From positions 2,169 through 66,168 of the forward strand of contig JASHPN010000372.1 in NCBI GenBank assembly GCA_030038175.1: a DNA stretch of 64,000 bases. The letters run 5' to 3'. Each line of letters begins with the position of its first letter. Position 1 is the first letter of the stretch. A program made the translations under genes and the position numbers. Below the pieces are notes generated by a model. That model searched no databases. It saw nothing but the letters and a program-made list of their open reading frames with translations, and had not been told where the DNA came from. Below, in pieces: positions 16,751-33,345 of this stretch. The stretch comes from Verrucomicrobiia bacterium (GTDB lineage: Bacteria > Verrucomicrobiota > Verrucomicrobiia > Limisphaerales > UBA11358).

Positions 16751-18859
16751 TCACTTTATCTCCATCTCCCAAATGCCGCTCCAATGGTCCGGCGGCCGGG
16801 CCGAAAGTTCGGCGCAGCGGGCGGCCAGCGCGCTGCCGGGGCCGTCGGAAAATTCCCGGGCGAGCTTTTCAAATTCCGTCCGCGCTTCGGCAAATTTTCC
16901 GGAAAAATATATTTCGTACGCCGCCGGGTAACGCGCGCAAAGCTCCGCGTAGTTTGCCGGGGTACAGGGATTTTCGTATTCGAACAATTCCACCGGTTCG
17001 GTTTTGCCCTTGACGATCACGCGGTCCACCAGCCGCCGGTTGCCTGGCACGTTGAATTGAGCCAGGGCTTCGCGCGTCACCAGCATCCGCACCCCGTAAA
17101 ATTTCGTGAGCAACTCCACGCGCGCCGCCTCGTTCACCGTGTCGCCGACCAGGCCGTAATCGAGCCGCAATGCCGAACCTTTGTTGCCGATCAGCACCGG
17201 GCCGCGGTGCAATGCGACGCCGTAGCCGAACAACTTCCGAACCTCGGCCGGCAGGGTTGCGCGCAAATCCTCCATCGCGCGGATGAGATTCATCGCCGCG
17301 CGTCCGGCGCGATCGGCGGCGTCCGGCTGCTCTTGCGGCGCGCCCCAGTAGCTTAAAAACTGGTCGCCGAGAAAATGCTCCAGATTCCCCTCCTCGCTCA
17401 TGACGGCGCTGGTCTGCGCGTCAAAGACGCGGTTGAGCAAATCGAACATGCCTTGCGGCCCGAGCATTTCGGCCAGGGGCGTCGAATTCCGCAAGTCCGT
17501 CAGCAGCACAGTCACTTCCGCCCGGCGCGGTTGCATCGAGCCGGGATCCGCCAGCACCTCATCCAGCACGCGGGGTGAGAAATAAAGTCCCATGGTGTGC
17601 CGCAGCTTCATCCGCTCCAGCCGTTCGGTGACGAAATCATATCCCAGCCCGCCCACGCCGGCGAAGGCCAGAACCAGCAGAGGACTGACCACCGGGAAAA
17701 TCGCGTTCACGTGATTGAAGAAAAATTCCGCGGCATAGAAAATACCCGCGCCGGCCACCAATATCACCAGCAGCCGTCGGACCGGCGCCCGGATGAAGAG
17801 ACATAACACAGCTGCGAACAGGCCGGTCAGCACGATGATGGCGCCGCTGGCGAACGGCGGCGTTTCGCCGATAAATTCGCCATGCAGCGCCGCATTGAGG
17901 ACGTTCAGGTGAATTTCCGGCCCGGCCATTTCCTGGCCGAACGGCGTGCGATGAAAGTCCTGGAAAATATTGGCCGTCGGACCAACCAGAATGAGCTTGC
18001 CCGCAAAAAACTTTCCACTGCCATAAGTGCGTTCCCAAAGTTCCGGCGTCAACACATCACCCAATGGGATCACCCGCCACGTTCCAGGCGGGCCGGTGAA
18101 ACGGATTCGTTGCGGTTTCCCGACGGCCGGCATTTTTTTCCCCGCGCCGAATTTCTCCAGCGCCCGGGCGGCGAAAGATTCGATAACAGCGCCGGGCGCG
18201 GCGTTCACCGCATCACCCAACTCATGGTTGGCGACGCAGAAATGCGCGTGGCGGAATACATCATCGCCGTCCGGCCAGAGGTTGACAAAGCCAACGCGCG
18301 AATCCAGGGCGGCAGGGCGGTCGGGCGTATCGGGAATCAAATCTGCGGTTGGCGCGGCGAATTGTGCCGGTTGACCGCGGTCCGTTTCTTCGAGATTAAA
18401 CACACCGCCGATGACAAGGTGGCTTGAATATTCGTTCAGGGCGAGGCGCAATTCGCGATCGCCGTTCGCTTCGCTGGCGAAAACCAAATCAATCGCAATC
18501 GTTTTGGCGCCGGCATCGGAAAGTTGCCGGATGAGCCGCGCCCAGACGATTCGCGACCATGGGAATTGGCCCCGCAGCGCGGCGAGTACCGGGTCATCGG
18601 CTGCCTCGGCGGGGGAAATGGCGTCGCTGCAGCTGGGCCGGTCAATTCCAATCAGAACGAGGTTGGTGTCGGCCGGCGTGAAACGCCCGTGGCGCGCAAA
18701 AAAATCCTGGACGAAATTTTCCGCGGCGTTTAACGGCGCGGCCAATGGCGGCGGGCCGCGAAAATCCACTGCCAGCACGGCGAGCGTGACCAATACGCAG
18801 AAGCAGCCGAGGACGGCCGTGCGGCGCGGCGGGCGGCGTCTATTGAATTGTTCGGGCAT
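16751..18859 (-). CDS. CHASE2-domain class III adenylate/guanylate cyclase (paralog 1)
   Basis: 702 aa. N-terminal TM, ~300-aa extracytoplasmic CHASE2-like region (VLIGIDRPS, IAIDLVFASE, WPDGDDVFRH), three TM helices. Cyclase core VTVLLTDLRNSTPLAE...FLGDQFLSYWGAP...YGLVGDTVNEAARVE. Helical, TPR-like tail. Confidence 0.85.
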   Translation of the reverse strand: MPEQFNRRRPPRRTAVLGCFCVLVTLAVLAVDFRGPPPLAAPLNAAENFVQDFFARHGRFTPADTNLVLIGIDRPSCSDAISPAEAADDPVLAALRGQFPWSRIVWARLIRQLSDAGAKTIAIDLVFASEANGDRELRLALNEYSSHLVIGGVFNLEETDRGQPAQFAAPTADLIPDTPDRPAALDSRVGFVNLWPDGDDVFRHAHFCVANHELGDAVNAAPGAVIESFAARALEKFGAGKKMPAVGKPQRIRFTGPPGTWRVIPLGDVLTPELWERTYGSGKFFAGKLILVGPTANIFQDFHRTPFGQEMAGPEIHLNVLNAALHGEFIGETPPFASGAIIVLTGLFAAVLCLFIRAPVRRLLVILVAGAGIFYAAEFFFNHVNAIFPVVSPLLVLAFAGVGGLGYDFVTERLERMKLRHTMGLYFSPRVLDEVLADPGSMQPRRAEVTVLLTDLRNSTPLAEMLGPQGMFDLLNRVFDAQTSAVMSEEGNLEHFLGDQFLSYWGAPQEQPDAADRAGRAAMNLIRAMEDLRATLPAEVRKLFGYGVALHRGPVLIGNKGSALRLDYGLVGDTVNEAARVELLTKFYGVRMLVTREALAQFNVPGNRRLVDRVIVKGKTEPVELFEYENPCTPANYAELCARYPAAYEIYFSGKFAEARTEFEKLAREFSDGPGSALAARCAELSARPPDHWSGIWEMEIK

Positions 18860-18926
18860 GGCTTCCGGCAGGTTGACAACTCCCGACCGGTGGTGTAAAG
18901 ATGATTGAAATTAGTCGGAGCGCCGG

Positions 18927-19778: not shown

Positions 19779-19789
19779 AAATCGATTCC

Positions 19790-20815
19790 ATGCGAACCCT
19801 TATCATGTTCCTGACCGCCGGGGCAGTTGCTTTCATATTACCCGCCGCGCGCGCCCAGTTGCCCAATGCCAGCCAGCAGATACAATCGTTCGAGCAGCAC
19901 AATCAGCTTGAACAATCGGCGCAATCGCTCCTGGTTACCAATATTCCGTCGCTTTACGAATCCGAGACCAGCGACGTCGGGCCGCAGTCCGTGGTCCAAA
20001 TCAAACCGCGCCGGACCTGGATCGAAGCTTACGGCGACGAGCAGTATTTTTACACTGACAATATGTTTCTCGCCGACCACAACAAGCAGGGCGCCGACGT
20101 GCTGGTGAGCACCGTACAGGCGGCGCTGGCGCCGACGCCGTTTCAAATCGGCAACGGCCAGCTCGCGCCGCGCGTTGGTTACCAGCAGCAATGGTTCAAT
20201 TACGACCTTGCCCGTTCGGACACGGCGGAGGTCTTTAATCTCAACACCGGCACATTTCAAACGGTGGGGTTGGATACGTTCGACTTCAACGCTTCCACCG
20301 TTTTTGGCGATTTGACCTGGCGGCAGAACAACTGGGTGTTGACCCTCGGAACGGATTTTCGCCGGTTGCTGGATTCCGGCAGTTACGCCGAATTTTACCG
20401 CGAATACGTTCCGCGCTGGTCCATCATGCGCGAATTGCCACTGACAAAAACCACCGGCCTTTCCCTGGGCTACGAAGGCGACTATCGCGCGACCGAAACC
20501 CAAAATCCGCCAACCGGCTTCGGCGAAAATTACAACGATCGAACCGATCACAGCCTCGTCATCGTCGGCAGTTGGCAGTTGTGCCGTTACGCGGTGCTTC
20601 AGCCGTTTTACCAATTTGAATACTCGCACTACACGGTTGTCAGGCGCGACGATTTCCTGAATTCCTTCGGTTTAACCCTGTATTGCCCCCTCACAAAAAA
20701 TGTTGCCTTGCGCGCCTTCGTCGGTTACGACGATTTGAATACCGACGGATTCTTCGCCCAGGATTACCAGCAACTCAACGCCGGCGGCGGATTGAATCTA
20801 TTTATCCGGTTTTAG
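19790..20815 (+). CDS. Putative outer-membrane beta-barrel protein
   Basis: 341 aa with a signal peptide (FLTAGAVAFILPAARAQ). Alternating beta-strand pattern rich in Y/G/N. C-terminal ...GGGLNLFIRF with a terminal Phe. Lies 11 nt after the FecR gene. Confidence 0.55.
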   Translation: MRTLIMFLTAGAVAFILPAARAQLPNASQQIQSFEQHNQLEQSAQSLLVTNIPSLYESETSDVGPQSVVQIKPRRTWIEAYGDEQYFYTDNMFLADHNKQGADVLVSTVQAALAPTPFQIGNGQLAPRVGYQQQWFNYDLARSDTAEVFNLNTGTFQTVGLDTFDFNASTVFGDLTWRQNNWVLTLGTDFRRLLDSGSYAEFYREYVPRWSIMRELPLTKTTGLSLGYEGDYRATETQNPPTGFGENYNDRTDHSLVIVGSWQLCRYAVLQPFYQFEYSHYTVVRRDDFLNSFGLTLYCPLTKNVALRAFVGYDDLNTDGFFAQDYQQLNAGGGLNLFIRF

Positions 20816-20831
20816 AACTCTTTCCCGTTTG

Positions 20832-21045
20832 GAGCGTGGCTGTGCTGAAAGCCAGCCGCAGCACGTTCACAACTCATTGAACGTGTGGTCATACGCCATG
20901 GTTGAGGCCGGCAATGTGCTGCCAAGGAACCATTCACGCAACTGCCCTGGATTCAATGTGATATCCGAATTAGGTTCCTTGGCAACCAAAACGAAATCTT
21001 AATTTCGTTGGAGTCTGCGGCTGGTCTTGAACACAGCCGCGCGCC
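20832..21045. repeat. MITE-like non-coding element with inverted termini (long variant of the GAGCGYGGCTGTG...CACAGYCGCGC family)
   Basis: Left end GAGCGTGGCTGTGCTGAAAGCCAGCCGCAGCAC. Right end CTGCGGCTGGTCTTGAACACAGCCGCGCGCC is its imperfect reverse complement. Internal 12-bp inverted repeat TGCCAAGGAACC...GGTTCCTTGGCA. Sits between convergent gene ends. Confidence 0.7.
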
Positions 21046-21059
21046 GGATTAGCACCGCG

Positions 21060-22625
21060 CTACCGCTCCGCAACCTGCGGGTGATGGTAGATGTGGCATT
21101 CGGCGCAGGAACTGGCCACGCCGCCGCGCGGGCTGTGGCATTGCGCGCAGGTTTCTTTCGGCGGCAAAAGGATGTCCGCGTTGTCCTGGCTGTGGACCGC
21201 GTCGTGGCATTGTGCGCAGGCGATGTTCGCGTGCGCGGCGTGGCTGAAGTTTGCCTCCGGCAGCCAGCGCTCGCGCATCACCGGCGGGGTGACTTCCGGC
21301 AAGCCGGCGCCCGGCGCTTTTACCTCATGGCAATACGCACAGCCGGGAAATACCGCCCGCGTCGCGCCACTCAACGTTCCGATTTGCGCCGCCGGCCCGA
21401 ACGTCGCGGTGCTGAAGAAAACGCGCTGTTCCAATTCCTCGCCGCTGCCGAACTGCGACCGCAGGCCGGCCAGCTTTTGCCGGACGAAATCATTTTCATC
21501 GGCCACGTTCTCCGCCGCGGCGAGTTTTGTGTATTGCTCCGGCAGGCTGTGCAAAAACGCCGATACAAAATCCGCGCTGCCGTGCGGGAGCCGCAACTCC
21601 GGCGTCTGCGGATCGAATTGCAGCGAATGGCAGATGCGGCAATCTTTCTCAAACGAAACCGGTTGCATGTAAGCGCCCGCGGCGTCCGGCTGATGGCAAA
21701 AGGCGCAATCCAATTTTTTACCGCCGGGCAGCGTCGGAATCGTCGCGCCCGTGAGGTGTAATTGGTGGTTGAATTTCAGCGTGTCCGGATTGCGCCATTT
21801 TTCCGTGATGAAAGCGAATTGCGGATGGTCCGTGGCAAAATGATGGACGAGCGGAACGGTCCCCGACCCCGCCATTTTTGCCGCGTCGCCGTGGCAGAAA
21901 TCGCAATTCGCGTCGGTCGTTGCCGCTATTTTGATTCCCTGGTGCTCGGCATGGCAAAACGCGCAGGAAATTTGCGGCGCACCCGGTTGATGAAAATTTT
22001 GCCCGGCGTGGCATTTCAGGCACGCGGCATCCAGGACCGTCGGCATCGCCCGTTGGGCCGTCACGAGTTTTTTGAACCCGAGGATTCCCGGGTCGGCGCG
22101 CAACGCGGCGGTGACGATTCCGTTGGGCCCGGAATTGCCGGCCGCGTGGCAGGCGTTGCAATTTGGCGCCAGGTGATTCGCCGCCGCCAGCGCCATAAAG
22201 GCCGCCCCGGAGTGCGCCAGTGAAAGCCGGCCGGGATTGATAAATTTGTCGCGCCACGGCGGATTGCCCAGTAAAACCAAAAGCGCGGCGCAGGAAATCG
22301 CGACGACCGCAAGGGTTATTCTTTGGCGAACCAGACGCAGCGTCGGCGTCGGCGAACATTTTGCAATCGGGCGGCAGCAGCTTCCGTCCGGCAACGGACC
22401 GGATTCACACGCGCCACCGGAGCGGGTACAGCGCCACCGGCCTTTCGTCTCGCCCGGTTTTGTCTCAAGCGCCGGCCGGCATTCCGCCGTGGCGCGGCAG
22501 CGGCCTCTTTCATCCGGACCGAGCCGGCACGGATTGCCTTCGCCGGCATGGCCGCAGATCCAGTTTTGATTCGGCCGCGCATAATTTTGCCCTTCAAAAT
22601 CCGGTGCTGGCGGCCGCTCGCTCAT
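21060..22625 (-). CDS. Membrane-anchored decahaem c-type cytochrome with Cys-rich N-terminal domain
   Basis: Ten CxxCH motifs: CNACH, CLKCH, CAFCH, CDFCH, CAFCH, CRICH, CAYCH, CAQCH, CAQCH, CAECH. The preferred start is the ATG at 22625 (MSERPP...), which forms an ATGA overlap with the upstream stop; the track start at 22718 would overlap the upstream gene by 97 nt. Nine Cys precede a single TM (ITLAVVAISCAALLVLLG). Confidence 0.88.
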   Translation of the reverse strand: MSERPPAPDFEGQNYARPNQNWICGHAGEGNPCRLGPDERGRCRATAECRPALETKPGETKGRWRCTRSGGACESGPLPDGSCCRPIAKCSPTPTLRLVRQRITLAVVAISCAALLVLLGNPPWRDKFINPGRLSLAHSGAAFMALAAANHLAPNCNACHAAGNSGPNGIVTAALRADPGILGFKKLVTAQRAMPTVLDAACLKCHAGQNFHQPGAPQISCAFCHAEHQGIKIAATTDANCDFCHGDAAKMAGSGTVPLVHHFATDHPQFAFITEKWRNPDTLKFNHQLHLTGATIPTLPGGKKLDCAFCHQPDAAGAYMQPVSFEKDCRICHSLQFDPQTPELRLPHGSADFVSAFLHSLPEQYTKLAAAENVADENDFVRQKLAGLRSQFGSGEELEQRVFFSTATFGPAAQIGTLSGATRAVFPGCAYCHEVKAPGAGLPEVTPPVMRERWLPEANFSHAAHANIACAQCHDAVHSQDNADILLPPKETCAQCHSPRGGVASSCAECHIYHHPQVAER

Positions 22626-23440
22626 CGGGCGCCTCCCGAAAATCCAAAAACCAGGGCGATGTGCAACGCCGTGAAAATGAGCAGGCCGTAAGTGAGCGGG
22701 ATGTGGACGAACAGCCACAACTTGAGCGCAAGCTGGAGCGCGCGATGATAGTCGAGGTCGTCCTTTTGCCGGACGAGGGCGGCGACCTTTTCAAGCGTGG
22801 CGCGTTCGCCGTCGCTGCCGGTGCGCCGCAAATCGTCCAGGGTGGCGATCAGCGCGTTGAGCGGACGCCGCGATTCCGCCAGATGCAGCCAGGAATTCTT
22901 TGGTCCGTCGAAAAATCGGGCGAGCCGGCGCGCGTAAAATTCCGCGATGACAGGCGATTGCGCCTCCCCTCCGAGCGCCAGTTTTTCCGCCTCGGCCCGG
23001 AGCGCGTGGCGCAACGCCGGGATTTTTTCGTAAATCACCTCGCCGCCGCGCGTCGCGAGCCGGCCGGGGAGGATGCGGCTGAAAATCAAACCGACCACGC
23101 CGCTGCCGGCCACAAGCACGAACAGCCACGCCAGCGTGACTTCAAACCATCCGCGTGGCAGGCGAAAATTCAGGTGAATCAAAAACAGCAACACGGTGAA
23201 AAAGCCGAGGTAGATGTGAATTTGCAGCCACGTTTCAGAATTTCCCAGCGGCAAAAATGGCAGCTTTTTCCGCGCGTTATACAGTGCCAGCAGCAACATC
23301 GCCGCGAGCAGGATCCAGCCCGTGAGAAACGCGTAATCCGGAAGCGCGCGGTTGAATTTCGCGTGCAGCCACAACGTCGCCGCCGTTGCGACCAGCAACG
23401 CGAACAGGCCGGAGAAAAATTGCCGCCGGAAGCGTTTCAT
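22622..23440 (-). CDS. 5-TM membrane protein, candidate di-haem b-type transmembrane electron carrier
   Basis: Preferred start is the ATG at 23440 (MKRFRRQFFSGLF...), ATGA-overlapping the upstream stop. About five hydrophobic helices. Two of them carry H-x13-H: HIYLGFFTVLLFLIH and HIPLTYGLLIFTALH. A ~110-aa helical soluble insert lies between TM4 and TM5. I do not recognise a family. Confidence 0.6.
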   Translation of the reverse strand: MKRFRRQFFSGLFALLVATAATLWLHAKFNRALPDYAFLTGWILLAAMLLLALYNARKKLPFLPLGNSETWLQIHIYLGFFTVLLFLIHLNFRLPRGWFEVTLAWLFVLVAGSGVVGLIFSRILPGRLATRGGEVIYEKIPALRHALRAEAEKLALGGEAQSPVIAEFYARRLARFFDGPKNSWLHLAESRRPLNALIATLDDLRRTGSDGERATLEKVAALVRQKDDLDYHRALQLALKLWLFVHIPLTYGLLIFTALHIALVFGFSGGAR

Positions 23441-25161
23441 TTTTGCAGCCAGCGCGTGAGCGCGTCCAGGTTGTTCAAGTTGGTCCGCGCGAGCGCGCCG
23501 TGCGGGCAGGCGCGCTGGCAGGCCGGACCGCTCCAATTTTCCACGCACAAATCGCATTTCGTCGCCTTCACAATCGGCTTCGATTCCTTGTCCACCAGGA
23601 TCTCGCCATCACCGTCGCGGATTTCCACCATCCGGATGGCATCGTAGGGACAATTGTTGGCGCACGACTTGCACCCGATGCACGTCGCGGGATTGACGAC
23701 TACCTGGCCGCCGAACGACTCGCGATGGATCGCGCCGGTCGGGCAGCCAATCATGCAGACCGGGTCGGCGCAGTGCATGCAGGCATTCGCAATCATCAGC
23801 CGCCCGGCGCTCGGGCCGTGCCGCAGGAAACGTGGATTGTTGTCGTGCGTCGAGGCGCAGGCACGAACGCAATCGTCACAGCGTGTGCAGCGATCAAGGT
23901 CAATCACCATCGTGGCCGTGCCGTTGAAAAAGCGGTTCTCGGTCAGAAATTCCAGGACTTCCGCGCCGATTTTTTCGCGCACCGCGGTTCCCGGCGCGCT
24001 CGAATCCAAATCTTCCGCCGCCGTTTCGGCCAAAGGCGGCAGCTCGTTTTTTGGCAGCGACGGCAAAACGATTTCCTCCATCACGCGCGTCGGCACGATG
24101 AGCAAATGCGTGTAACCGATGGCGCGGAGGGAAAATTGAAAATTCACCGGTGCTTCTTTGCATCGCCAGTTGTGGGCAATTTCGTTCAGGCCGAAAATCC
24201 GGCCGGCGCCGAGGTAATTCAGCGTGCGCTCACCGCCCCCGGTTTTCTGGCTCACGCGCGCGAAGCCGGCCCGCAACAGCACGATGCCGTTCGGGTAATC
24301 GCCTTCCGTGAGGATGGCGGGTTCCTTTTCCGGACGGACGCCGCCGGCTTGCACGAGACGTTTGTATTCGCCGGACCAGTCATAGTCGCCAAACGTCGCA
24401 AACTCGACGGCCTCGGCAACGCGATCGAGTTGCTCCTTGCCCAAATTTTTGAATATCGGCGTCGCGCGGAGATACGATGCCAGCGCGCGTTCGCGGTAAA
24501 TGCGGTTGATGTGCGTACGCAACGCGTCGTCGTTCTTCATCAAATCCCGCAGGCCCTGCCAGCGGATTTCGAGCAATTCCGCGTCGTCGCTGTCGGCGAA
24601 AATGGTCGAAGTGCGCGGCATCCGGCTCAGCGCGGCAATCTCGCCAAAAAAATCGCCCGCCGTCATCTGTTCCGTGCGGTGCTGGTTCAAAACGCGCGGC
24701 AAATCTTGAAGAAAGACGTGAACTTCGTTTTCATCCTGTCGCGAGCCGACGCCGGCATCTTGTTTCAACTGGGCGGGGGAGAAGCTTTCCGGCGGACGTG
24801 AACCGTTCCAAAACTGGGCAAGCGTGCGCCAAATTCCCTTTTTGCCGGGCGAATGCCGGCCAAGCAGCGACGGTGGCAAATCCGGTTGCAACACGACGCT
24901 CGCGGCGCCGTTCAAAATCAGAAATGCCGACGTGCCGTAATCGCCCTGGCGCACAATGATTTCACCTTTGCGGAACCGGAGCAGGCGCGTGTCGTGGCGC
25001 AGAATTCCGCGGAGCGGTATGCGTTTGGGAAACCTCTCCGCGCTCATGTCGCAAAACGGCGGGATGGCGAGCAGCCGGTCCGCGTCGGCGTCCGTCATTT
25101 CCGGGTCGAAGGCGGCGTCCCAGCGCTGCGGTCGTTCGAGGATGGTCGGGGCGGCGGACAT
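23437..25161 (-). CDS. Cyclic-nucleotide-binding domain protein fused to a DmsB/NrfC-like 4x[4Fe-4S] ferredoxin module
   Basis: 574 aa. cNMP-binding-type segments (LRFRKGEIIVRQGDYGTSAFLILNG; GDFFGEIAALSRMPRTSTI; LGAGRIFGLNEIA). C-terminal Cys clusters CTRCDDCVRAC, CMHCADPVCMIGCP, CIGCKSCANNCP, CDLCVENWSGPACQRACP. No twin-arginine signal at the N-terminus. Confidence 0.85.
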   Translation of the reverse strand: MSAAPTILERPQRWDAAFDPEMTDADADRLLAIPPFCDMSAERFPKRIPLRGILRHDTRLLRFRKGEIIVRQGDYGTSAFLILNGAASVVLQPDLPPSLLGRHSPGKKGIWRTLAQFWNGSRPPESFSPAQLKQDAGVGSRQDENEVHVFLQDLPRVLNQHRTEQMTAGDFFGEIAALSRMPRTSTIFADSDDAELLEIRWQGLRDLMKNDDALRTHINRIYRERALASYLRATPIFKNLGKEQLDRVAEAVEFATFGDYDWSGEYKRLVQAGGVRPEKEPAILTEGDYPNGIVLLRAGFARVSQKTGGGERTLNYLGAGRIFGLNEIAHNWRCKEAPVNFQFSLRAIGYTHLLIVPTRVMEEIVLPSLPKNELPPLAETAAEDLDSSAPGTAVREKIGAEVLEFLTENRFFNGTATMVIDLDRCTRCDDCVRACASTHDNNPRFLRHGPSAGRLMIANACMHCADPVCMIGCPTGAIHRESFGGQVVVNPATCIGCKSCANNCPYDAIRMVEIRDGDGEILVDKESKPIVKATKCDLCVENWSGPACQRACPHGALARTNLNNLDALTRWLQK

Positions 25162-25163
25162 TT

Positions 25164-26471
25164 TCAGGCGTCAAGGACCAAATCGCTTTTCGGCCGGCAA
25201 ATGCAGGTGAGGCACGAGCCGGCGTCCGGTTCGGCGTCCGGGCGCTTCAGATAATTCACCTCGCCGGACTTTATGGCGACGACGCACGTGCCGCAGCCGC
25301 CGGCGCAGCAGCCGGAATCAATTTTTATTCCTTCCGCCGCCGCAAACTCCAGCAAATTGCCGGCGGAGGGCTCCCAGCGGACCGTTTTGTTTGAGCGCGA
25401 AAACGTGACGAGGATTTTTGCCAGATGCGCAGTTTCGTCGAGCGTCGGCACGGCGGCTTTTTTCTTGACCGTCGCCGGCCCAAACGCTTCGAAATGGACG
25501 GCTGAGTCCGGCACGCCCCAGGATTCAAGGCCGTCGGTGATGCCTTTCATAAACGCGCCGGGGCCGCAGAGATAAAAATCAAAATTGTTCGACGGCAGCA
25601 ATTCCTTGAACAACTCAACGCTGACGCGGCCTTCGTGTTGGTAATCGCGGTCCTTCACATCGTCCGGCCCGGGTTTGCTGTAGCAAACGTGCAGCCGGAT
25701 GTTCTCGTTCTTCGCCGCAAGCTTTTCCAATTCAGCCTTGTGGATGTGCTCGCGCCAATTCCGGGCGCCCAGGAAAAACCACACCTCGCGTTTCGAGCCG
25801 CCGGCGACGATCGCGTTGGCCATGCTCAACATTGGCGTAATGCCGACTCCGCCGGCGATGAGCACTATGGGGTTTGTTTTCGTCAGGTCGAGGAAGAATT
25901 GGCCGGCGGGCGCTTTGACATTGAGGATGTCACCCTCCTTGACCACGTCGCAAAAATAACTCGAGGCCGCGCCCGGCGGCAAATCCGGCCGGTCCGGCGG
26001 CGCTTTTTCCTTCTTAATCGTGACGCGGTAATAATCCTTCTGGTGCGGACAATCGGACAGCGAATAGCAACGGACCAGCGGCTTGTCGCGGCCCGGCAGG
26101 TCGAGCTGGAAGGTCAGGTATTGCCCCGGTTTGAACGCCGGCAGCGCCCGCCCATCGTGCGGCTTTAAGTAAAACGCACAAACGTCATCACACTCGATGA
26201 CTTTTTTTGCGACGGCGAATTTGCGGAGGCCGTTCCAGCCCGCTTGCGCCGGCCCGGCTTCGCGGCAACGCAGGCGGACCTCGTCCACTTGCGCGCGGAG
26301 CTTTTCCCGCGCCAGCCGCGCTTGCACGCGCTCGGCGTTCACCCGCAGCCCGGACCGGATTGCTTCCAAAATCAGCCAGGCCGCGAGCGCGGCGAGCAGC
26401 AGCAGTCCGGCGGCAAAGCTCAGGTCGCCGCCGGCGAGGGCATGCAAGGACGCGATTAAGGTTGCAATCAT
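25164..26471 (-). CDS. Membrane-anchored ferredoxin-NAD(P) reductase-type flavoprotein with C-terminal plant-type 2Fe-2S domain
   Basis: 435 aa. N-terminal TM (FAAGLLLLAALAAWLIL). FAD motif RCYSLSD. NAD(P) motif LIAGGVGITPMLSM. 2Fe-2S pattern C-x4-C-x2-C...C (GCCAGGCGTCVV...SCLTCICRP). Its stop is 2 nt from the next start. Confidence 0.88.
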   Translation of the reverse strand: MIATLIASLHALAGGDLSFAAGLLLLAALAAWLILEAIRSGLRVNAERVQARLAREKLRAQVDEVRLRCREAGPAQAGWNGLRKFAVAKKVIECDDVCAFYLKPHDGRALPAFKPGQYLTFQLDLPGRDKPLVRCYSLSDCPHQKDYYRVTIKKEKAPPDRPDLPPGAASSYFCDVVKEGDILNVKAPAGQFFLDLTKTNPIVLIAGGVGITPMLSMANAIVAGGSKREVWFFLGARNWREHIHKAELEKLAAKNENIRLHVCYSKPGPDDVKDRDYQHEGRVSVELFKELLPSNNFDFYLCGPGAFMKGITDGLESWGVPDSAVHFEAFGPATVKKKAAVPTLDETAHLAKILVTFSRSNKTVRWEPSAGNLLEFAAAEGIKIDSGCCAGGCGTCVVAIKSGEVNYLKRPDAEPDAGSCLTCICRPKSDLVLDA

Positions 26472-26500
26472 GCCGCCACTCCATTAACGAATTTATCGTC

Positions 26501-27715
26501 GTGAGTAAAACAATTTATGGTTCCCTGACCGCCGGCCTGATTTTCTGCCTGGCGGCGCGCGCGGCGGACACGCCGGGGAAATTTCTCGGCGCCAATTCCT
26601 GCGCCAGCTCCAGTTGTCACGGCGGCGGTGGCGCGAATCAGAACCAGTTCCTCATCTGGTCGCTCAAAGATTTTCACTCGCAGCGGCCGTTCGCCACGCT
26701 GGCGACCGCGCGCGCCAAACAAATCGCCGTTGCGGCCGGCATCATGGATCCGATCACGGACGAACGCTGCACGGCCTGTCACACACCGTTGCGGGACGTG
26801 CCGGAGGATTTGCGCGGCAGCGATTTTAGGATTAGCGAAGGTGTTTCCTGCGAAAGCTGTCATGGCCCGGCGGGAAGTTGGATTCGGTCACATACGCGGA
26901 CCGATTATACGCGCGCCGAGCGCACGGCGGCCGGAATGCGCGCCCTGGAAAATCTTTACGTCCGCGCCAACGCGTGCGTCGCGTGCCACCAGGTCGTCGC
27001 CGAACCATTGCTGAAGGCCGGCCACCCGGAATTGATTTTTGAATTGGACGGCCAGAGCGTGGCCGAACCGAAACATTGGACCGTGGCCAGAAACGGCATC
27101 GGCCCCCAGGCGTGGTTCGTCGGCCAGGCGGTCGCATTGCGGGAAACAAGCTGGGAACTGGCACGCGAAAAATCACCGTCGGAAAATGAAATGAACCGTT
27201 GGGGCGGCCTGGTTTGGCTGTTGATCCGCGCGGACAAAGTTGACCCTGATTTGCCGAAGCCGCCGGACGTCACATTCCGTCCAAACCCGGAAAACTTTGA
27301 ACTGGTCCAAAAATGGAGCGACGGTCTGGCCCGCGCCGCGGCGGAGATTTCATGGACGAACACGATGACCCAAACCGCCCTGCTGGCGCTGTCTGGCACG
27401 GCGGCTGATTTCAGGGAGGCGGTCCCGCAAGCAGTCAAGGCTCGCCGCGCCGAACGCCTGGTGCTGGCGCTGGACCGGCTCGTCATGTCGCTGCCGCAAA
27501 TCCGGCGGAGCGCGCCGCTTAATGGCGCGCTGGACAGGTTGTTCAGCGACGCACAGTCGCTGCCGGATTTCAAACCGGCTGATTTTGCCGCGCATCTTGA
27601 AGAGTTTCAGAAACAGGTACAATTGGCGGCGGTGGACAACCGACCAGCCCGCACCACGCATTTGCCATGGTGTCAAACCGCTGTCCGGCAGGATCGGAAA
27701 ACTATTTTTCAGTAA
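26501..27715 (+). CDS. Secreted multihaem (about four haems) c-type cytochrome with C-terminal non-haem domain
   Basis: The track ORF starts at 26207, but that stretch overlaps the divergent reductase gene. The in-frame GTG at 26501 gives a signal peptide, (V/M)SKTIYGSLTAGLIFCLAARAADTPG. Haem motifs CTACH, CESCH, CVACH plus an atypical CASSSCH (CX4CH). The exact start is uncertain. Confidence 0.72.
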   Translation: MSKTIYGSLTAGLIFCLAARAADTPGKFLGANSCASSSCHGGGGANQNQFLIWSLKDFHSQRPFATLATARAKQIAVAAGIMDPITDERCTACHTPLRDVPEDLRGSDFRISEGVSCESCHGPAGSWIRSHTRTDYTRAERTAAGMRALENLYVRANACVACHQVVAEPLLKAGHPELIFELDGQSVAEPKHWTVARNGIGPQAWFVGQAVALRETSWELAREKSPSENEMNRWGGLVWLLIRADKVDPDLPKPPDVTFRPNPENFELVQKWSDGLARAAAEISWTNTMTQTALLALSGTAADFREAVPQAVKARRAERLVLALDRLVMSLPQIRRSAPLNGALDRLFSDAQSLPDFKPADFAAHLEEFQKQVQLAAVDNRPARTTHLPWCQTAVRQDRKTIFQ

Positions 27716-29711
27716 GGTCAATTTCACCCATCCACTCGGCATTGGGCGGGTGAATGGCGAATTGCCGAATTTGCTCCAGATAAAATTTGCTGGGACCGTC
27801 GTTGGGCCGGAGTTCAAGAACTTTCGTGAAAGCCGCTCGCGCTTCGTCAAATTCCTTGTGCATAAATCTGCTCAACCCGGTGATGAAGGTTTTCCTCCAT
27901 TCGGCGGTGGCCTGTTCCTCCTCCGGCAGGCCGACCATCTCATGCACCTCGACCACCTGGTTAAACCCCTTAAACTTGAAATAGCCGGCCAACCGGGAAA
28001 CGATCTTGCCCTCGCTGGATTTCTGGATCTCGCGCGTGGCCAGAATGTTTGTGCCAAGTTGTTTGTTCAAGCCTTCCAGGCGGGAAGCCAGATTGACGCT
28101 TTCGCCGATTGCGGTGTAGTCAAAATGGGTTGAGCTTCCGATATTGCCCACGCACACCGCGCCGGTATGCAGACCCACGCGAGTATATAACGGAAGATGC
28201 CAACTGGCCTCTTCAAATCTTATCAACGCCCGGTTTAGCAGGATGGCAGCCTTGCAGGCGCGATACTGGTGGTCGGGCTGCTCTTGCGGGGCGTTCCAGA
28301 TCGCAAAAATCGCATCGCCAATCAGGTTCATCACCGTTCCGCGCGTTTCATGCACGCAACCGATGGCCGTTTCGTAGTAGGCATTCATCAGCTTGACGAG
28401 ATCCTCGGTAATCATACGTTCGGATATTTTTGAAAAGCCCGCGATATCGCTGAACAGGATGCTGACGGTTTTCAATTCGGCGCCCGGTTTCAATAAGTCA
28501 GGTTGCCTCAGGATTTGTTTCACCGACTCCGGCGAGAGATACAATGCCAATGAGGTTTCCAGCACCTGGGTCTGGACATAGGACTTGACGGAACTGAAAA
28601 GATAGGCCCAGCTCAGCCCGATCGGGATTTGGATTGCGACAATGATCATCCACGACATCCAGACATGAAATCGGTCGGCCATGATGATGGCCAGGGTCGT
28701 CACGATCACGGCGGCCGCGGCGGCCAGTCCGGTGGCCGCGACCGGACGGTAACAACTCAAGCCATAACCAAGAAGAATCCCGGCAAAAATAAAAAGCATG
28801 GTTTGCAGACCGTCGGGCAGCCGGGTCATCCAGTCCTGGCGGACAAGGTTGGCAAAGGTGAGGGCGTGGATTTCCACACCGCAAGGAAAATACCCCGTCA
28901 GCCACGTCCATGGACTGCGGAATTGCTCTTTTTCCTGGCCGCTATAACCGGCCACCTCGCCGGAACCGACGAAAACCACCTTGTCTTTAAGTGAAATATC
29001 CGCGGGCAATTGTTTTCCGGAAATGACGTCGCAATACGAAATAGCCGGAAACGGCGCGCTGGAATAATAATTCAGCCAACGCTCGCGCAGGCGGGTCTCC
29101 GGCCGTTGCGTGACCTCGGCTCCGGAAATTTCCGCGGCCTTCCAGGCCAGGCTGGGAACCTGGCCGGTGCCCGGATATTGAATGCGCGCGGCGAAATCTG
29201 TGTCCCGGTTAACCAGCGCCAATCCCCAGCCCGCCGCCACATTTCGAAATAGATCAATCGGGGGCCAGACAGTCGCGCTGTTGTATCCCAGGTGAGTGTC
29301 CTGGTAAAACTGCGCGCCTAATACCACGCGGCCTTGATTTTGAATCGCCCGGGCAAATTCCTGGTCGGCGGCGGTTATCGGGCCGGAATCGTCAATGAAC
29401 AGAATGTCAAAAACAATCAATTTGACTCCGGCCTGCTTGAGCCGGTTCACCAGTTGGGCGTGCAGCCCCCGGTCGAAGGACGCCGGATCCTGATTCAGTT
29501 GGCGATATGACTTCTCGTCCAGATAAATAATCACCACGTCATTGATTTTGGCTTCGGGGCGGAAGAGGAAGGGAAGGTCAAAACTCCAATCGCGCAGTCC
29601 CTTGCCGAAGGGAAACCAGAATAAGGCCAGCCCGGTGAGCGTCGCCAGCAACGCCCCCACGCCGCCGCCAAACCACGGCTGATGCAAACGTTTTTTGAAG
29701 CCGGCGTCCAC
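27702..29711 (-). CDS. CHASE2-domain class III adenylate/guanylate cyclase (paralog 2)
   Basis: 669 aa with the same architecture as 16751-18859: N-terminal TM, CHASE2-like region (VVIIYLDEKSY, IVFDILFIDDSG), three TM helices. Cyclase core VSILFSDIAGFSKISE...LIGDAIFAIWNAP...YTAIGESVNLASRLE. TPR-like tail (ARAAFTKVLELRPNDGPSKFY). Confidence 0.85.
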   Translation of the reverse strand: MDAGFKKRLHQPWFGGGVGALLATLTGLALFWFPFGKGLRDWSFDLPFLFRPEAKINDVVIIYLDEKSYRQLNQDPASFDRGLHAQLVNRLKQAGVKLIVFDILFIDDSGPITAADQEFARAIQNQGRVVLGAQFYQDTHLGYNSATVWPPIDLFRNVAAGWGLALVNRDTDFAARIQYPGTGQVPSLAWKAAEISGAEVTQRPETRLRERWLNYYSSAPFPAISYCDVISGKQLPADISLKDKVVFVGSGEVAGYSGQEKEQFRSPWTWLTGYFPCGVEIHALTFANLVRQDWMTRLPDGLQTMLFIFAGILLGYGLSCYRPVAATGLAAAAAVIVTTLAIIMADRFHVWMSWMIIVAIQIPIGLSWAYLFSSVKSYVQTQVLETSLALYLSPESVKQILRQPDLLKPGAELKTVSILFSDIAGFSKISERMITEDLVKLMNAYYETAIGCVHETRGTVMNLIGDAIFAIWNAPQEQPDHQYRACKAAILLNRALIRFEEASWHLPLYTRVGLHTGAVCVGNIGSSTHFDYTAIGESVNLASRLEGLNKQLGTNILATREIQKSSEGKIVSRLAGYFKFKGFNQVVEVHEMVGLPEEEQATAEWRKTFITGLSRFMHKEFDEARAAFTKVLELRPNDGPSKFYLEQIRQFAIHPPNAEWMGEIDLTEK

Positions 29712-29886
29712 CGGGCGAAGTTACGGCATCAGACACGCGGTGTGAAGCAAAACCCGTTTGCTGAGGCTGGGAGCCGCTGGCCGGCCCCGAACCATTGTTC
29801 TTGCTTTAGTTTCAAAATTACATATAGGTGTTCCCGTAATTCCCTTGCGGCCAACCCGGCTATATCCAGGCGTATGGCTTCCGCCC

Positions 29887-32800
29887 TTGAATGCGAAAAC
29901 AATTTTCGCCGCCGGCCTGTTTTGCCTGCTGGCCTGCCGGCTGCCGGCTCAAACGGCTTCACCGGCCCCTGGCCCCATGACCAATTATCTGGCCGTGATC
30001 CAGGGCGATGTGGAAGTCAGCCTCGCCGGATCGGGGCCCTGGGTTCCCGCCAAATTGAACCAGACGTTGCGGCCGGGCGACCGCGTGCGAACCGGCGAGC
30101 GCAGCCGGGCCGATATTTATCTGGCCGGCGGGATGGTCATCCAAAAGAGCGAGTTTTCTGAAATTGAAATCCCGCCAACCGGCAACGTTGTTTTCCGGCG
30201 GGGCATTTTCAAAATCTTCGACCGGGAGCGGGACCATCGTTTGGAGTTGCGCATGCCCACGGCCACGGCCGCGATCCGCGGCACCGATTTTCTCGTGCGC
30301 GTGGGGGACGATGGCACTTCTGAAATCATCGTTTTGGATGGCAGCGTCGCGCTCAAAAACGCCCACGGTGAAGTGCTTTTGGCCAATAACGAACGCGGCC
30401 TGGCCGAACCCGGACAACCGCCGCGGAAATCTGCCGTCATTGAAGCGGTTAATGATTTGATTCAATGGAATCTTTACTACCCGGCCGTGGTGGACGTGGA
30501 CACGCTTGGCTTTACCGCCGCGGAGCAACAGGCCCTGGCCCCGTCCCTGGATGAATATCGCGCCGGCGATCTGGTTCGTGCGTCCGATGCCTACGACTGG
30601 AAGCGCGCCAACCTTTCCGATGCCGAAACCATTTACCGCGCCGAACTTCTGTTAAGCCTGGGCCAGGTGGACGAAGCCAAAAAACGGCTCGACACGGCGC
30701 CTTCCCTGCCCGCGGCGTCCGCCTTGTTGAAATTGATCAAGGCGGTCAAGTTCGAACGGACCACCGACACACACCCCAATGCCACTGCGGCGGAATGGCT
30801 TGCGGAATCGTATTATCAGCAATCGCTCGCCAATCTTCCGGCGGCCCGATTGGCAGCGCGGCGGGCGGCCGACCTGGCGCCTGGCTTTGGTTTCGCGTGG
30901 GAGCGGGTCGCGGAATTGGAGTTCTGTTTTGGCCGATCGCATGAAGCGTTGATCGCGCTGGACAAGAGCCTGGAATTGTCGCCGCGAAATGCGCAGGCGC
31001 TTGCGCTCAAAGGATTTCTGCTGGCAGCGCAAAATAACATCCGGGATGCCACCCGGTGGTTTGATCGCGCCATTGCCACCGACGGGGCGCTGGGAAACGC
31101 ATGGCTCGGCCGCGGTTTGTGCCGCATCCACACGGGCCGCCGCTCCGAAGGGCTGCGCGATTTGCTGATGGCGGCGGCGCTTGAGCCGCAGCGTTCGCTC
31201 CTGCGGAGTTATCTGGCTAAAGGATTTTCTGACGCGGGAGAAAACGTTTTGGCCGACAAGGAAATCAGACTCGCTTTGCAGCTTGACCCCGGCGACCCGA
31301 CGGGCTGGCTTTATTCTGCCTTGATTGAGCAACAGCAAAATCAGGTGAATCCAGCCATCACCGACATGGAAAAGTCCGAATCGCTCAACGACAACCGGCA
31401 GATATTTCGCTCGAAGATGCTGCTGGACCAGGACAATGCCGTTCGCAGCGTCAATCTGGCCACAATGTATGACGATGCCGACATGTATGATGTGGGGGTG
31501 CGGGAGGCAGCCAGGGCCGTGACTTACGATTATGACAACGCTTCCGCGCATTTGTTTCTTTCCGACAGCTACAACGCCTTACGCGACCCGACGGGGTTTA
31601 ATCTGCGCTACGATACAGCCTGGTTCAACGAATTGCTGCTGGCCAATCTGCTGGCCCCCGTCGGCGCGGACCGGCTCTCTCAGACTCTTTCCTACCAGGA
31701 ATATTCCAAATTATTCGAGTCGGACGGACCAGGGTTTGCCGATGAAATTTCCTGGCGCAGCGACGGCGAGCTTAACGAAATGGCCGGGCAATACGGGACT
31801 TACAAAAACACGTCGTGGGCGGCGGATTTGGACTACCAGCACAACAACGGCGTGCGCGCAAACAACCAGCTCGACGACACTTCCGGGGATGTAACGGTCA
31901 AGCAACAACTCACTCCGTCGGACACCGTCCTGGGGATCGCGCAATTTGAAAATTATCATTCGGGCGACAATTTCCAATACTACAATTTCTACACTGCCTA
32001 CCGGACAAATTATGAATATGGGGAACATCAGGATCCGACGTTCGTTGGGGGATACCAGCACGAATGGTCGCCCGGCAACCGCACATTGGTGCTGGGAGGA
32101 CGACTGGAGGACGAGCAACACTTTTCACAGAGTCAGGCGCCGCAACTGGCGGTGTACCTGAATCCGTCAGGCACAATTGCCGACGTCTTTAATCAACCTT
32201 TTGATGTCGCGCTTCAGGACGAACTGCTCATTTATACCGCTGAATTTTGCCAAATTGTTCAGCAGGATAGATATACGCTGATTGTCGGCGGGCGCTGGCA
32301 AGGCGGGCAATTTACGTATTCCGATTCATTAACCCCCAACCCGCCGTCACCGCCCCTTTTTGACCCGGCTTCGGGGTCGTTTTCCGCGCCGTTCCAACGG
32401 CTCGATGGTTACGGTTATCTCACGGTCAAGCCAGTTGACAAACTGTGGCTTACCGGCGGCTTCGCGTACGATGCCATGACCTATCCCGCCAACTTCCGCA
32501 ATGTGCCTGACAGCGGAGGCACGGACGAGCGGCAACTGCCGGAACCCAAAGCCGCCATTGTCTGGAGTCCGCTCAAACAGGTGACGCTGCGTGGCGTCTA
32601 TGCGCGTTCGCTGGGCGGCGTAAGCCTGGATGACAGTTACCGGCTCGAACCGACGGAACTCGCCGGTTTTGTGCAGACTTTTCGTTCCGTGATTCCCGAA
32701 TCCATCGTCGGCAGCGTTTCGGCGGAGGACGTGCAATTGGAGGGCCTGGCGCTGGACCTCAAATTCAATCACGGCACGTTTGCCGGCCTCGAGGCGCAAA

Positions 32801-33345
32801 ACCTGGATTCGACGGTTCGGCAAACCATTGGCGATTTCCTGTTCCCTAATACACCGGTGTTCCAACCGTTCGCGCCGTCCACGACACCCCAAAGTTTTAA
32901 CTACTATGAGCAATCCTTTTCCGCCAGCATCAATCAATTGCTGCCGGACGGATTTGTGGCGGGCCTCAGTTACAATTTTACCCATTCAGAACTCAAAACC
33001 ACCTATCCGCAAATTCCCGCTGCCTTCCTGCCCTCGCAGGACCAATGGGCCTGCCTGCACCAGATTGGCGCCTACCTGCTTTTCAACCATCCTTCCGGGT
33101 TGTTTGCCCAATTCGACGCGCACGGCTACTTGCAACAAAACTATGGTTACTCACCCGCGGAGCCAGGCAACGATTTTGTCCAGTTGGATTTAGAGGGTGG
33201 CTGGCGGTTTTTTCAAAGGCGCGCCGAATTGCTTGTGGGAATCCTGAATCTCACCGGCCAAAATTACAGCCTCAATCCGCTGAATGTGTACTCTGAACTG
33301 CCGCGCAAATGTGTGTTCTATGGACAATTTAGTTTTGAGTTTTGA
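29887..33345 (+). CDS. Fusion protein: FecR domain + TPR repeats + C-terminal outer-membrane beta-barrel-like domain
   Basis: The track ORF begins at 29758. The in-frame TTG at 29887 gives a clean signal peptide, (M)NAKTIFAAGLFCLLACRLPAQ; the start remains uncertain. FecR-like core (RPGDRVRTGERSRADIYL...AAIRGTDFLVRV...IVLDGSVALKN). TPR-like segment (ALDKSLELSPRNAQALALKGFLL, RLALQLDPGDPTGWLYSAL). ~600-aa Y/G/N-rich C-terminal region ending ...VFYGQFSFEF. Confidence 0.75.
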   Translation: MNAKTIFAAGLFCLLACRLPAQTASPAPGPMTNYLAVIQGDVEVSLAGSGPWVPAKLNQTLRPGDRVRTGERSRADIYLAGGMVIQKSEFSEIEIPPTGNVVFRRGIFKIFDRERDHRLELRMPTATAAIRGTDFLVRVGDDGTSEIIVLDGSVALKNAHGEVLLANNERGLAEPGQPPRKSAVIEAVNDLIQWNLYYPAVVDVDTLGFTAAEQQALAPSLDEYRAGDLVRASDAYDWKRANLSDAETIYRAELLLSLGQVDEAKKRLDTAPSLPAASALLKLIKAVKFERTTDTHPNATAAEWLAESYYQQSLANLPAARLAARRAADLAPGFGFAWERVAELEFCFGRSHEALIALDKSLELSPRNAQALALKGFLLAAQNNIRDATRWFDRAIATDGALGNAWLGRGLCRIHTGRRSEGLRDLLMAAALEPQRSLLRSYLAKGFSDAGENVLADKEIRLALQLDPGDPTGWLYSALIEQQQNQVNPAITDMEKSESLNDNRQIFRSKMLLDQDNAVRSVNLATMYDDADMYDVGVREAARAVTYDYDNASAHLFLSDSYNALRDPTGFNLRYDTAWFNELLLANLLAPVGADRLSQTLSYQEYSKLFESDGPGFADEISWRSDGELNEMAGQYGTYKNTSWAADLDYQHNNGVRANNQLDDTSGDVTVKQQLTPSDTVLGIAQFENYHSGDNFQYYNFYTAYRTNYEYGEHQDPTFVGGYQHEWSPGNRTLVLGGRLEDEQHFSQSQAPQLAVYLNPSGTIADVFNQPFDVALQDELLIYTAEFCQIVQQDRYTLIVGGRWQGGQFTYSDSLTPNPPSPPLFDPASGSFSAPFQRLDGYGYLTVKPVDKLWLTGGFAYDAMTYPANFRNVPDSGGTDERQLPEPKAAIVWSPLKQVTLRGVYARSLGGVSLDDSYRLEPTELAGFVQTFRSVIPESIVGSVSAEDVQLEGLALDLKFNHGTFAGLEAQNLDSTVRQTIGDFLFPNTPVFQPFAPSTTPQSFNYYEQSFSASINQLLPDGFVAGLSYNFTHSELKTTYPQIPAAFLPSQDQWACLHQIGAYLLFNHPSGLFAQFDAHGYLQQNYGYSPAEPGNDFVQLDLEGGWRFFQRRAELLVGILNLTGQNYSLNPLNVYSELPRKCVFYGQFSFEF

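Follow-up and report, generated by a model that had tools for sequence, protein, structure and literature searches.

We examined a 64-kb stretch of DNA from a Limisphaerales bacterium of the Verrucomicrobiota (contig JASHPN010000372.1; hereafter the window), which holds a module of five genes for redox proteins: g1 to g4 on the minus strand at 21060-26471 and the divergent g5 on the plus strand at 26501-27715. On balance we read the module as a route by which electrons may leave the cytoplasm for periplasmic c-type haems. Based on Pfam, NCBIfam and PDB matches and on cysteine conservation, g1 (25164..26471) encodes a membrane-anchored, NAD(P)H-oxidising flavoprotein of 435 amino acids (aa). 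Pfam matches, cysteine conservation and PDB relatives identify the product of g2 (23437..25161) as a cytoplasmic polyferredoxin of 574 aa with domains for binding cyclic nucleoside monophosphates (cNMP). g3 (22622..23440) specifies a 272-aa protein with five transmembrane (TM) segments, which its invariant histidines and an AlphaFold2 (AF2) model mark as a putative di-haem b cytochrome. By motif count and a TM helix, g4 (21060..22625) encodes a membrane-anchored decahaem cytochrome c of 521 aa, and g5 (26501..27715) encodes a secreted tetrahaem cytochrome c of 404 aa as judged by Pfam Cytochrome_C554, haem motifs and a signal peptide. For simplicity, the proteins are referred to below by the names of their genes.

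The four open reading frames (ORFs) of g1 to g4 are tightly packed. Read along the minus strand, the g1 stop codon TGA is followed by AA and then by the g2 ATG at 25161, a gap of 2 nt, and ATGA overlaps join g2 to g3 at 23437-23440 and g3 to g4 at 22622-22625. The 4-nt overlap is retained at the g2/g3 junction in 20 related loci and at g3/g4 in 30. The ORF list also offered longer alternatives of 311 aa for g3 and 552 aa for g4. Since the lengths of database relatives, mostly 574-575 aa for g2, 271-272 aa for g3 and 519-530 aa for g4, match those predicted by the overlaps, the overlap-based starts are right. A previous reading of this DNA, made from the sequence only, had described four packed genes on one strand and had chosen their starts from the overlaps; the ORFs and the three junctions bear out the former, and the homologue lengths of g2, g3 and g4 agree with the latter. 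A scan for promoters and terminators over 20500-28000 gave counts no higher than in shuffled sequence and was uninformative on the operon. The divergent start codons of g1 (ATG, 26471) and g5 (GTG, 26501) are 29 nt apart (26472-26500) and the gap is similarly small in relatives, so both promoters must lie within neighbouring coding sequence.

The flavoprotein g1 begins with a TM helix at about aa 17-38, which is retained in 33 of 37 homologues. It is followed by FAD_binding_6 (aa 86-192) and NAD_binding_1 (aa 204-311) domains, and by a C-terminal plant-type Fer2 domain for a [2Fe-2S] cluster (aa 362-428). The cysteines C388, C393, C396 and C420/C423 are invariant in the homologue alignment. 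The best PDB matches of the flavin module were to flavohaemoglobin (1cqx, E = 1e-53), NqrF and phthalate dioxygenase reductase. The protein scored 273 bits against the reductase part of the NCBIfam flavohaemoprotein model, which is under the equivalog cut-off, and it missed every cut-off among the curated equivalog models. The flavohaemoglobin reductase, NqrF and phthalate dioxygenase reductase families all oxidise NAD(P)H and donate electrons.

The N-terminal portion of g2, approximately 410 aa, matches Pfam cNMP_binding (PF00027) at 84.4 bits against a gathering threshold of 27.5. The match falls in three stretches, which together make up two cyclic-nucleotide-binding (CNB) domains, the first of which (CNB-A) is split by an insertion. 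The phosphate-binding cassette of CNB-A is canonical, FGEIAALSRMPRTS (F172-G-E-I-A-A-L-S-R-M-P-R183-T-S); G173, E174 and R183 are 100% conserved in 42 homologues, with T/S184 next. The C-terminal domain contains 16 cysteines (C425...C552) in four cluster motifs of the ferredoxin type CxxCxxCxxxC, and all 16 are likewise 100% conserved in the 42 homologues. This domain matches Fer4_11 (PF13247) at 38.3 bits against a gathering threshold of 26.2 as well as several other Fer4 models, and its PDB relatives are four-cluster subunits of the HycB, NrfC and NarH type. Such a fusion of cNMP-binding and ferredoxin domains is without a characterised counterpart. The protein shows no TM segment and neither a twin-arginine (Tat) nor a hydrophobic N-terminal signal, and the stretch from the preceding in-frame stop to the ATG holds no start codon. 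Export of this iron-sulphur (FeS) protein is ruled out by the absence of a Tat signal and of any start codon upstream of the ATG; cNMP-binding domains are cytoplasmic. A transcriptional regulator of the CRP/FNR type was also ruled out, since no helix-turn-helix (HTH) model was matched and the C-terminus is a ferredoxin domain.

The membrane subunit g3 has five hydrophobic helices with the histidine pairs H75-x13-H89 in TM3 and H246-x13-H260 in TM5. All four histidines are invariant in the 44 homologues from the related loci described below and in 60 diverse representatives at 33-54% identity. In the AF2 model (pLDDT 95.5), four TM helices are followed by a cytoplasmic helical insert (aa 137-207) and a long helix (aa 210-267) that ends as TM5. 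The predicted topology has the N-terminus inside (MKRFRRQ..., with R57 and K58 conserved in the first inside loop) and the C-terminus outside. With the N-terminus inside, TM3 and TM5 would both run from the inside to the outside and, being parallel, would bring H75 level with H246 and H89 level with H260. A pair of stacked bis-His b haems would be expected to show this arrangement, and we infer from the sequence that g3 binds haem b in this manner.

The module is widespread, and the g3 family by itself comprises 1,738 representatives at 50% identity with E values up to 1e-3, of which 308 have E values up to 1e-30. Among the 60 diverse relatives, weak but recurring Pfam matches were found to DUF4405 in eight (E below 0.01, best 2.3e-6), to Ni_hydr_CYTB in three and to Ferric_reduct (PF01794) in one (E = 0.0013), and several database relatives carry a precomputed match to PF14358, the DUF4405 model. 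Haem b binding has been shown for a DUF4405 protein, which was modelled as an MsrQ/PepSY-like transmembrane cytochrome with four central histidines (PMC11334425). Sequence and profile searches of the PDB with g3 returned chance matches to coiled coils only, and a Foldseek search of the PDB with the g3 model returned sensor and ABC-transporter helices at best (E = 0.76), with cytochrome b6 at E above 2.5. The protein is best described as a new, distant family of the broad DUF4405-like class without a solved relative.

The first 100 residues of the decahaem cytochrome g4 form a cytoplasmic domain; a TM helix at aa 103-121 then leads into the periplasmic domain, which bears 10 CXXCH motifs. This number of haem motifs is found in each of the 33 full-length homologues from Verrucomicrobiota and in each of the 11 distant loci studied. 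Beyond the CXXCH motifs there are ten additional invariant histidines, which we take from the alignment to be the distal haem ligands, their number being as expected. g5 starts with GTG and a signal peptide (...AARA|AD), and its c554-like N-terminal part (Pfam Cytochrome_C554) carries one CX4CH and three CXXCH motifs with four additional conserved histidines. Its motif count of four is likewise constant over these loci. A C-terminal domain of about 230 aa follows. As the additional histidines equal the haem motifs in number in both g4 and g5, we read these as electron-transfer haems that would lack an open catalytic site.

The cytoplasmic domain of g4 includes a segment with eight cysteines (22356..22556, minus strand; C24, C33, C43, C49, C66, C73, C83 and C90). 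It looks like an internal duplication of C-x6-8-C-x2-GP-x3-4-G-x-C-x5-6-C, and no family match was found for it. The eight cysteines are invariant in the full-length homologues aligned, all from Verrucomicrobiota, and the domain is also found in a Gemmatimonadota-labelled contig. Planctomycetota homologues of g4 are without the domain and keep a Y-x-RP(N/D) motif alone. This domain may bind a metal or an Fe-S cluster or may dock g2, and it is dispensable for the core wire.

The sequence-only reading had assigned these products as a TM-anchored FAD/NAD(P)H reductase with a plant-type 2Fe-2S domain, a soluble protein with four [4Fe-4S] motifs and cNMP-binding domains, a 5-TM protein with two H-x13-H helices, a TM-anchored periplasmic decahaem cytochrome and a divergent tetrahaem cytochrome at 26501-27715. 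Pfam matches, TM predictions, the 16 cysteines of g2, the four histidines of g3 and the haem-motif counts support all five assignments; to these are added the 8-Cys domain of g4 and the make-up of the g5 motifs, one of which is CX4CH. Tat export of the FeS protein, named there as a possible objection, is contradicted by g2 as it stands, and its cNMP domains and the gene fusion described below agree with a cytoplasmic location.

To assess the conservation of the module, one genome per GTDB species was scanned. This yielded 44 loci, to which four metagenome contigs were added. They come from Verrucomicrobiota (Limisphaerales, Verrucomicrobiia and Akkermansiaceae-labelled), from Planctomycetota (Pirellulaceae, Mariniblastus and others) and from a small number of bins with odd labels. 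Every related locus of sufficient length retains the order g2-g3-g4, and g1 precedes these genes in all except one locus, L046. The arrangement of g1 to g4 on a single strand holds down to 36-45% identity. Across metagenome-assembled genomes (MAGs) of Limisphaerales the module is 75-86% identical and is under strong constraint, and in the homologue alignments every cofactor ligand of the module is invariant. In three short metagenome contigs with distant relatives of g3, g2 and/or g4 adjoin it. Homologues of the genes are therefore found together in 44 genome loci and four metagenome contigs of two phyla, as the sequence-only reading would have them.

The position of g5 differs between the phyla. 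It is divergent from g1 in Verrucomicrobiota, as in the window. In Planctomycetota and the Gemmatimonadota-labelled contig it sits between g1 and g2 and is co-oriented with them. Since g5 is inside the operon in Planctomycetota, the unit usually has five genes. The previous description of a complete four-gene chain thus stands in part: g1 to g4 are coupled and the subunit content is as described, but g5 belongs to the unit, and the acceptor is not encoded in the set.

L046 (JGI 3300038831, a 46-kb contig) provides a natural variant of the module. Here g2 and g3 are fused into one protein of 843 aa (L046:8001-10532), a decahaem g4 comes next, and g1 and g5 are absent within 8 kb. The fusion suggests that g2 and g3 are in physical contact and locates g2 at the N-terminal, cytoplasmic end of g3. 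That g1 is missing indicates that g2-g3-g4 is the core of the module.

Three contigs carry the labels Bifidobacteriaceae (L005), Methylacidimicrobium (L019) and Gemmatimonadota (L041). L005 and L019 are 70-79% identical to the Verrucomicrobiota version and are probably mis-binned. L041, at approximately 48% identity, may be a real occurrence outside the Planctomycetes-Verrucomicrobia-Chlamydiae (PVC) group.

The module is flanked in the window by genes for class III adenylate/guanylate cyclases. On the left, a cyclase with Pfam CHASE2 and Guanylate_cyc domains (16751..18859, minus strand) is followed by a secreted FecR-domain protein (18927-19778, plus strand; Pfam FecR) and by a 341-aa protein (19790-20815, plus strand) that has a signal peptide and ends in Phe. 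The latter matches no Pfam family, and from these features we take it to be an outer-membrane beta-barrel. On the right, Pfam identifies a second CHASE2 class III cyclase with a C-terminal TPR region (27702..29711, minus strand), convergent with g5, and its divergent partner, a 1195-aa FecR-TPR protein with a TonB-receptor-like beta-barrel region (29758..33345, plus strand). The convergent 3' ends of g5 and this cyclase gene overlap by 14 nt (27702-27715). Each of the two flanking sets (16751-20815 and 27702-33345) thus combines a CHASE2 cyclase, a FecR-domain protein and a putative outer-membrane protein, with the FecR, TPR and barrel parts fused in one protein in the right-hand set. No class III cyclase domains other than these two, one on either side of the module, occur in the 64-kb window.

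The association with cyclases extends to the related loci. Among the 23 Verrucomicrobiota loci in which the flank extends for at least 5 kb, 20 encode a CHASE2 cyclase at a distance of 2.2-5 kb downstream of g4, and the position of the FecR/341-aa pair between g4 and the cyclase is conserved in Verrucomicrobiota loci. In Planctomycetota, a class III cyclase is divergent upstream of g1 in five of the six loci with enough flank. These cyclases are cytoplasmic and have no CHASE2, with a weak GAF match in one. That the cyclase is kept while its sensor part differs between the phyla fits a functional tie to the cNMP domains of g2, and the left-hand CHASE2 cyclase of the window is a candidate source of the nucleotide sensed by g2. 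In Sinorhizobium, which has CHASE2 adenylate cyclases, a FecR-domain protein is among the targets of the cyclic AMP (cAMP) regulator Clr (PMC5498481).

We propose, with somewhat better than even confidence, that the module forms one membrane complex that passes electrons from NAD(P)H to periplasmic c haems, bypasses the quinone pool and is gated by cAMP or cyclic GMP (cGMP). The flavin adenine dinucleotide (FAD) of g1 would be reduced by NAD(P)H and would pass electrons to the [2Fe-2S] cluster of g1. From there they would move along the four [4Fe-4S] clusters of g2 and cross the membrane through the two b haems of g3, with the H75/H246 haem near the cytoplasm and the H89/H260 haem near the periplasm. 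Transfer through ten bis-His haems in g4 and four haems in g5 would then take them to an acceptor not encoded in the set. Candidates for the physiological acceptor are extracellular Fe(III) or humics, reached via separate outer-membrane conduits, and periplasmic reductases. Assembly of the proteins into a single complex would be in line with the gene fusion and the translational coupling. Such a path would conserve no energy and would in this respect resemble NOX, MsrQ-Fre and fermentative flavin-based electron transfer. Plausible uses are the disposal of reducing power to Fe(III) or humics, the supply of periplasmic reductases and iron acquisition.

The two CNB domains of g2 would tie this flux to cAMP or cGMP from the neighbouring class III cyclases, so that the complex could act as an electron valve gated by a second messenger. 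Since the only output domain of g2 is its clusters, gating by cAMP or cGMP would be the most economical reading of two CNB domains on this protein. The previous reading had spoken of built-in sensor domains; the cNMP domains are indeed present, and a sensor role is suggested by the cassette residues and the neighbouring cyclases. We raise as a tentative possibility that the module represents the first second-messenger allosteric control of an electron wire, that is, a new type of electron valve independent of the respiratory chain, a cAMP/cGMP-switched, quinone-bypassing complex under envelope-sensing (CHASE2/FecR/outer-membrane protein) or cytoplasmic cyclases. To our knowledge, there is no earlier case of such control of an electron-transfer wire.

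A quinone-free path is favored because NrfD, NapC/NirT and NarI-type modules are absent from the set. It is possible that g3 is instead a quinone-interacting di-haem b protein like NarI, FdnI or CbcL, in which case the module would be an NAD(P)H:menaquinone reductase, or a quinol:cytochrome c oxidoreductase fed or regulated by the cytoplasmic subunits. Four-cluster ferredoxin subunits normally dock on quinone-reactive anchors, as in NarGHI, FdnGHI and NrfCD, and the three g3 relatives mentioned above match Ni_hydr_CYTB, a quinone-reactive cytochrome b family. However, neither g3 nor g4 matched the NrfD, NapC/NirT or NarI models, the periplasmic haems are on a subunit that is translationally coupled to g3, and quinone is not required for transfer from NAD(P)H to a multihaem acceptor in the periplasm. 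We therefore consider a quinone-linked function unlikely.

The outward direction of flow is suggested by family knowledge and thermodynamics. The close relatives of g1 without exception oxidise NAD(P)H and act as donors. Moreover, electrons passing from c haems to NAD(P)+ (about -320 mV) would have to climb twice, in redox potential and against the inside-negative membrane potential, and the set is without an ion-translocating subunit. Both arguments count against the reverse route, in which periplasmic donors would feed g5 and g4, then g3, g2 and finally NAD(P)+ or another acceptor, in the manner of Tmc or Hmc. The combination of a periplasmic multihaem c, a membrane b and a cytoplasmic FeS protein is Tmc/Hmc-like, and L046, with no g1, implies that the cytoplasmic partner can vary. 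Yet most members of the host groups live as aerobic or facultative heterotrophs (compare PMC13608581), and inward flow seems to us quite unlikely. It is very unlikely that the genes provide no bulk electron path and are a redox-sensing or assembly device or mere gene neighbours with cNMP domains as structural relics, for although one CNB domain is degenerate and a nearby cyclase is missing in some loci, no subunit has an HTH, kinase, GGDEF or like output domain, the 21 predicted redox centres with invariant ligands are far beyond the needs of a sensor, and the translational coupling, the gene order across two phyla and the gene fusion favor a complex.

Several observations weigh against a cNMP-gated wire from NAD(P)H to the periplasm. 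The case as a whole is built on sequence and predicted structure. g3 is outside the recognised haem-binding families: its score against DUF4405 (PF14358) is 21.2 bits, below the gathering threshold of 26.7, an hhalign comparison of its family with E. coli MsrQ was not significant (probability 0.35%), and haem binding is deduced from the histidine pattern. A quinone site in g3 is possible. The AF2 model of g4 from an alignment of 51 relatives had a pLDDT of 42 and a pTM of 0.20 and was not used. The cassette of the second CNB domain of g2 (CNB-B, about aa 235-360) is non-canonical. L046 is without a nearby g1 or g5, so NAD(P)H may not be the sole donor. No cyclase was found within approximately 6 kb in L004, L028, L029, L041, L043 and L046. 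Lastly, Verrucomicrobiota and Planctomycetota are rich in cyclases, and their adjacency to the module is accordingly suggestive but not proof.

The proposed wire shares features with several known systems. In NOX, FRE and SpNOX, an FNR-type NAD(P)H/FAD module passes electrons to a stack of two b haems, which are bound by His pairs 13 residues apart on two TM helices, and electrons move from the cytoplasm to the outside. The same spacing is found, invariant, in TM3 and TM5 of g3, although the resemblance to NOX and ferric reductases is functional only. In the present set, flavin and a [2Fe-2S] cluster are carried by a separate membrane-anchored protein, flavin and haems are bridged by a four-cluster ferredoxin, and the acceptors are c-type cytochromes rather than O2. 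In addition, g3 has five TM segments and a cytoplasmic insert in contrast to the six TM segments of the PF01794 family, which just one of the 60 relatives matched, and weakly.

E. coli MsrPQ receives electrons from the cytosolic NAD(P)H-dependent flavin reductase Fre, and, as proposed for g3, its membrane b-type cytochrome hands electrons to a periplasmic partner. According to one report, MsrQ "specifically transfers electrons to MsrP" (PMC12525009). Unlike MsrPQ and the DUF4405, PepSY-like and FezC systems, the locus has no MsrP-type molybdoenzyme, ApbE or flavinylated partner and instead has an FeS relay and 14 c haems. DUF4405 proteins are also described as having six TM segments, compared with five in g3.

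The Tmc, Hmc and DsrMKJOP complexes are similar in having a periplasmic multihaem c, a membrane b and a cytoplasmic FeS protein in a conduit for which quinone is optional. They differ from the module in that g2 is a four-cluster protein of the ferredoxin type and not a CCG-domain (HdrD-like) protein, in the NAD(P)H flavoprotein and cNMP domains that the module adds, and in the likely direction of flow, which is the opposite in the module. The equivalog models failed for HmcA (28.7 against 400 bits), HmcB (36 against 420), DsrO (56 against 200) and TmcA (21.7 against 114). The C-terminal domain of g2 belongs to the ferredoxin family of NarH, FdnH and HycB and, as in NarH-NarI and FdnH-FdnI, would bind to a di-haem anchor from the cytoplasmic side. 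The module is nonetheless without a molybdopterin catalytic subunit, and the g3 sequence is unrelated to NarI or FdnI.

The inner-membrane entry systems for extracellular electron transfer (EET), namely CymA, ImcH, CbcL and CbcBA as well as Ndh2/EetAB/PplA, are like the module in that a membrane-anchored multihaem cytochrome feeds the periplasm. Those systems oxidise quinol, whereas the module would be supplied through NAD(P)H, FAD and FeS, and a porin-cytochrome pair is not encoded in the module. Further candidates were rejected on scores and subunit content. For Na+-NQR, the NqrF model TIGR01941 gave 122.6 bits against 295 over the FAD/NAD part only, and the other Nqr subunits are absent from the locus. 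For Mtr/DmsE (TIGR03508), g4 and g5 scored 16.9 and 21.6 bits against 192, and the neighbouring 341-aa putative outer-membrane protein had no family match. For NapC/NirT/CymA (PF03264), g4 had no match and g5 reached 19 bits against 24.1. For Qrc and Nrf, the scores were 41.7 against 400 for QrcC and 39.9 against 377.6 for NrfC, and an NrfD-like protein is absent. The sequence-only reading had set the genes apart from Nqr, Rnf, ACIII, Nrf, Mtr and Qrc, and it is upheld by the curated models of Nqr, Qrc, Dsr, Hmc, Nrf and DmsE/Mtr, all of which missed their cut-offs. Full-text literature searches found no description of the gene set, and the source databases list the five proteins, including the architecture of g2, as "hypothetical" or under generic domain names only. 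The module is otherwise of a known type, a transmembrane electron-transfer complex, in which the g3 family and the cNMP-ferredoxin fusion are without a characterised counterpart.

Verrucomicrobiota and Planctomycetota are abundant in soils, peat and waters, and electron export from their cytoplasm is poorly known. Porin-cytochrome clusters have been described in Verrucomicrobia with the inner-membrane step left open (PMC5615132). A Limisphaerales "EET4" cluster of porin and multihaem assemblies has also been reported, and the portion of the preprint available makes no mention of inner-membrane, NADH or cyclic-nucleotide components (bioRxiv 10.64898/2026.05.27.727921). In 2026, Limisphaera isolates were described as the first members of the phylum to carry out dissimilatory Fe(III) reduction (PMC13608581). 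The module is thus a candidate for the missing inner-membrane step of EET in Verrucomicrobiota and Planctomycetota. If the cNMP domains gate the flux, redox metabolism would be tied directly to second messengers with transcription bypassed, and g3 would add a new family of transmembrane b-type cytochromes without a solved relative.

A few minor observations concern insertions in the related loci and genes elsewhere in the window. In a Limisphaerales MAG (L007; JAYVCM010000245), a 2.1-kb insertion with two ORFs separates the g2 and g3 homologues (L007:1775-3903). One ORF encodes a 342-aa protein without a Pfam match and the other a protein with TIR and prokaryotic-STING domains; the insertion looks like a CBASS-type anti-phage pair inside the operon. 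Some relatives carry, at junctions that are tight in the window, insertions of 120-250 nt that contain long inverted repeats such as AACATCCAAC...GTTGGATGTT (L009:1427-1560 and 3277-3532; L012:5892-6025, 7748-8003 and 8814-9070; L018:6158-6282; L026:6153-6282; L007:4714-4960; L011:2768-3012; L013:1668-1866). The inserts at g1/g2 resemble each other and two at g2/g3 are 83% identical. Their appearance is that of small palindromic (REP/MITE-like) elements with intergenic junctions as their targets. Two large genes of the window are unrelated to the module: a single-module type I polyketide synthase of 2474 aa with the domain order KS-AT-DH-ER-KR-ACP-TE (47101-54525, minus strand) and a LamG/Ig-repeat surface protein of 2479 aa (55723-63162, plus strand).

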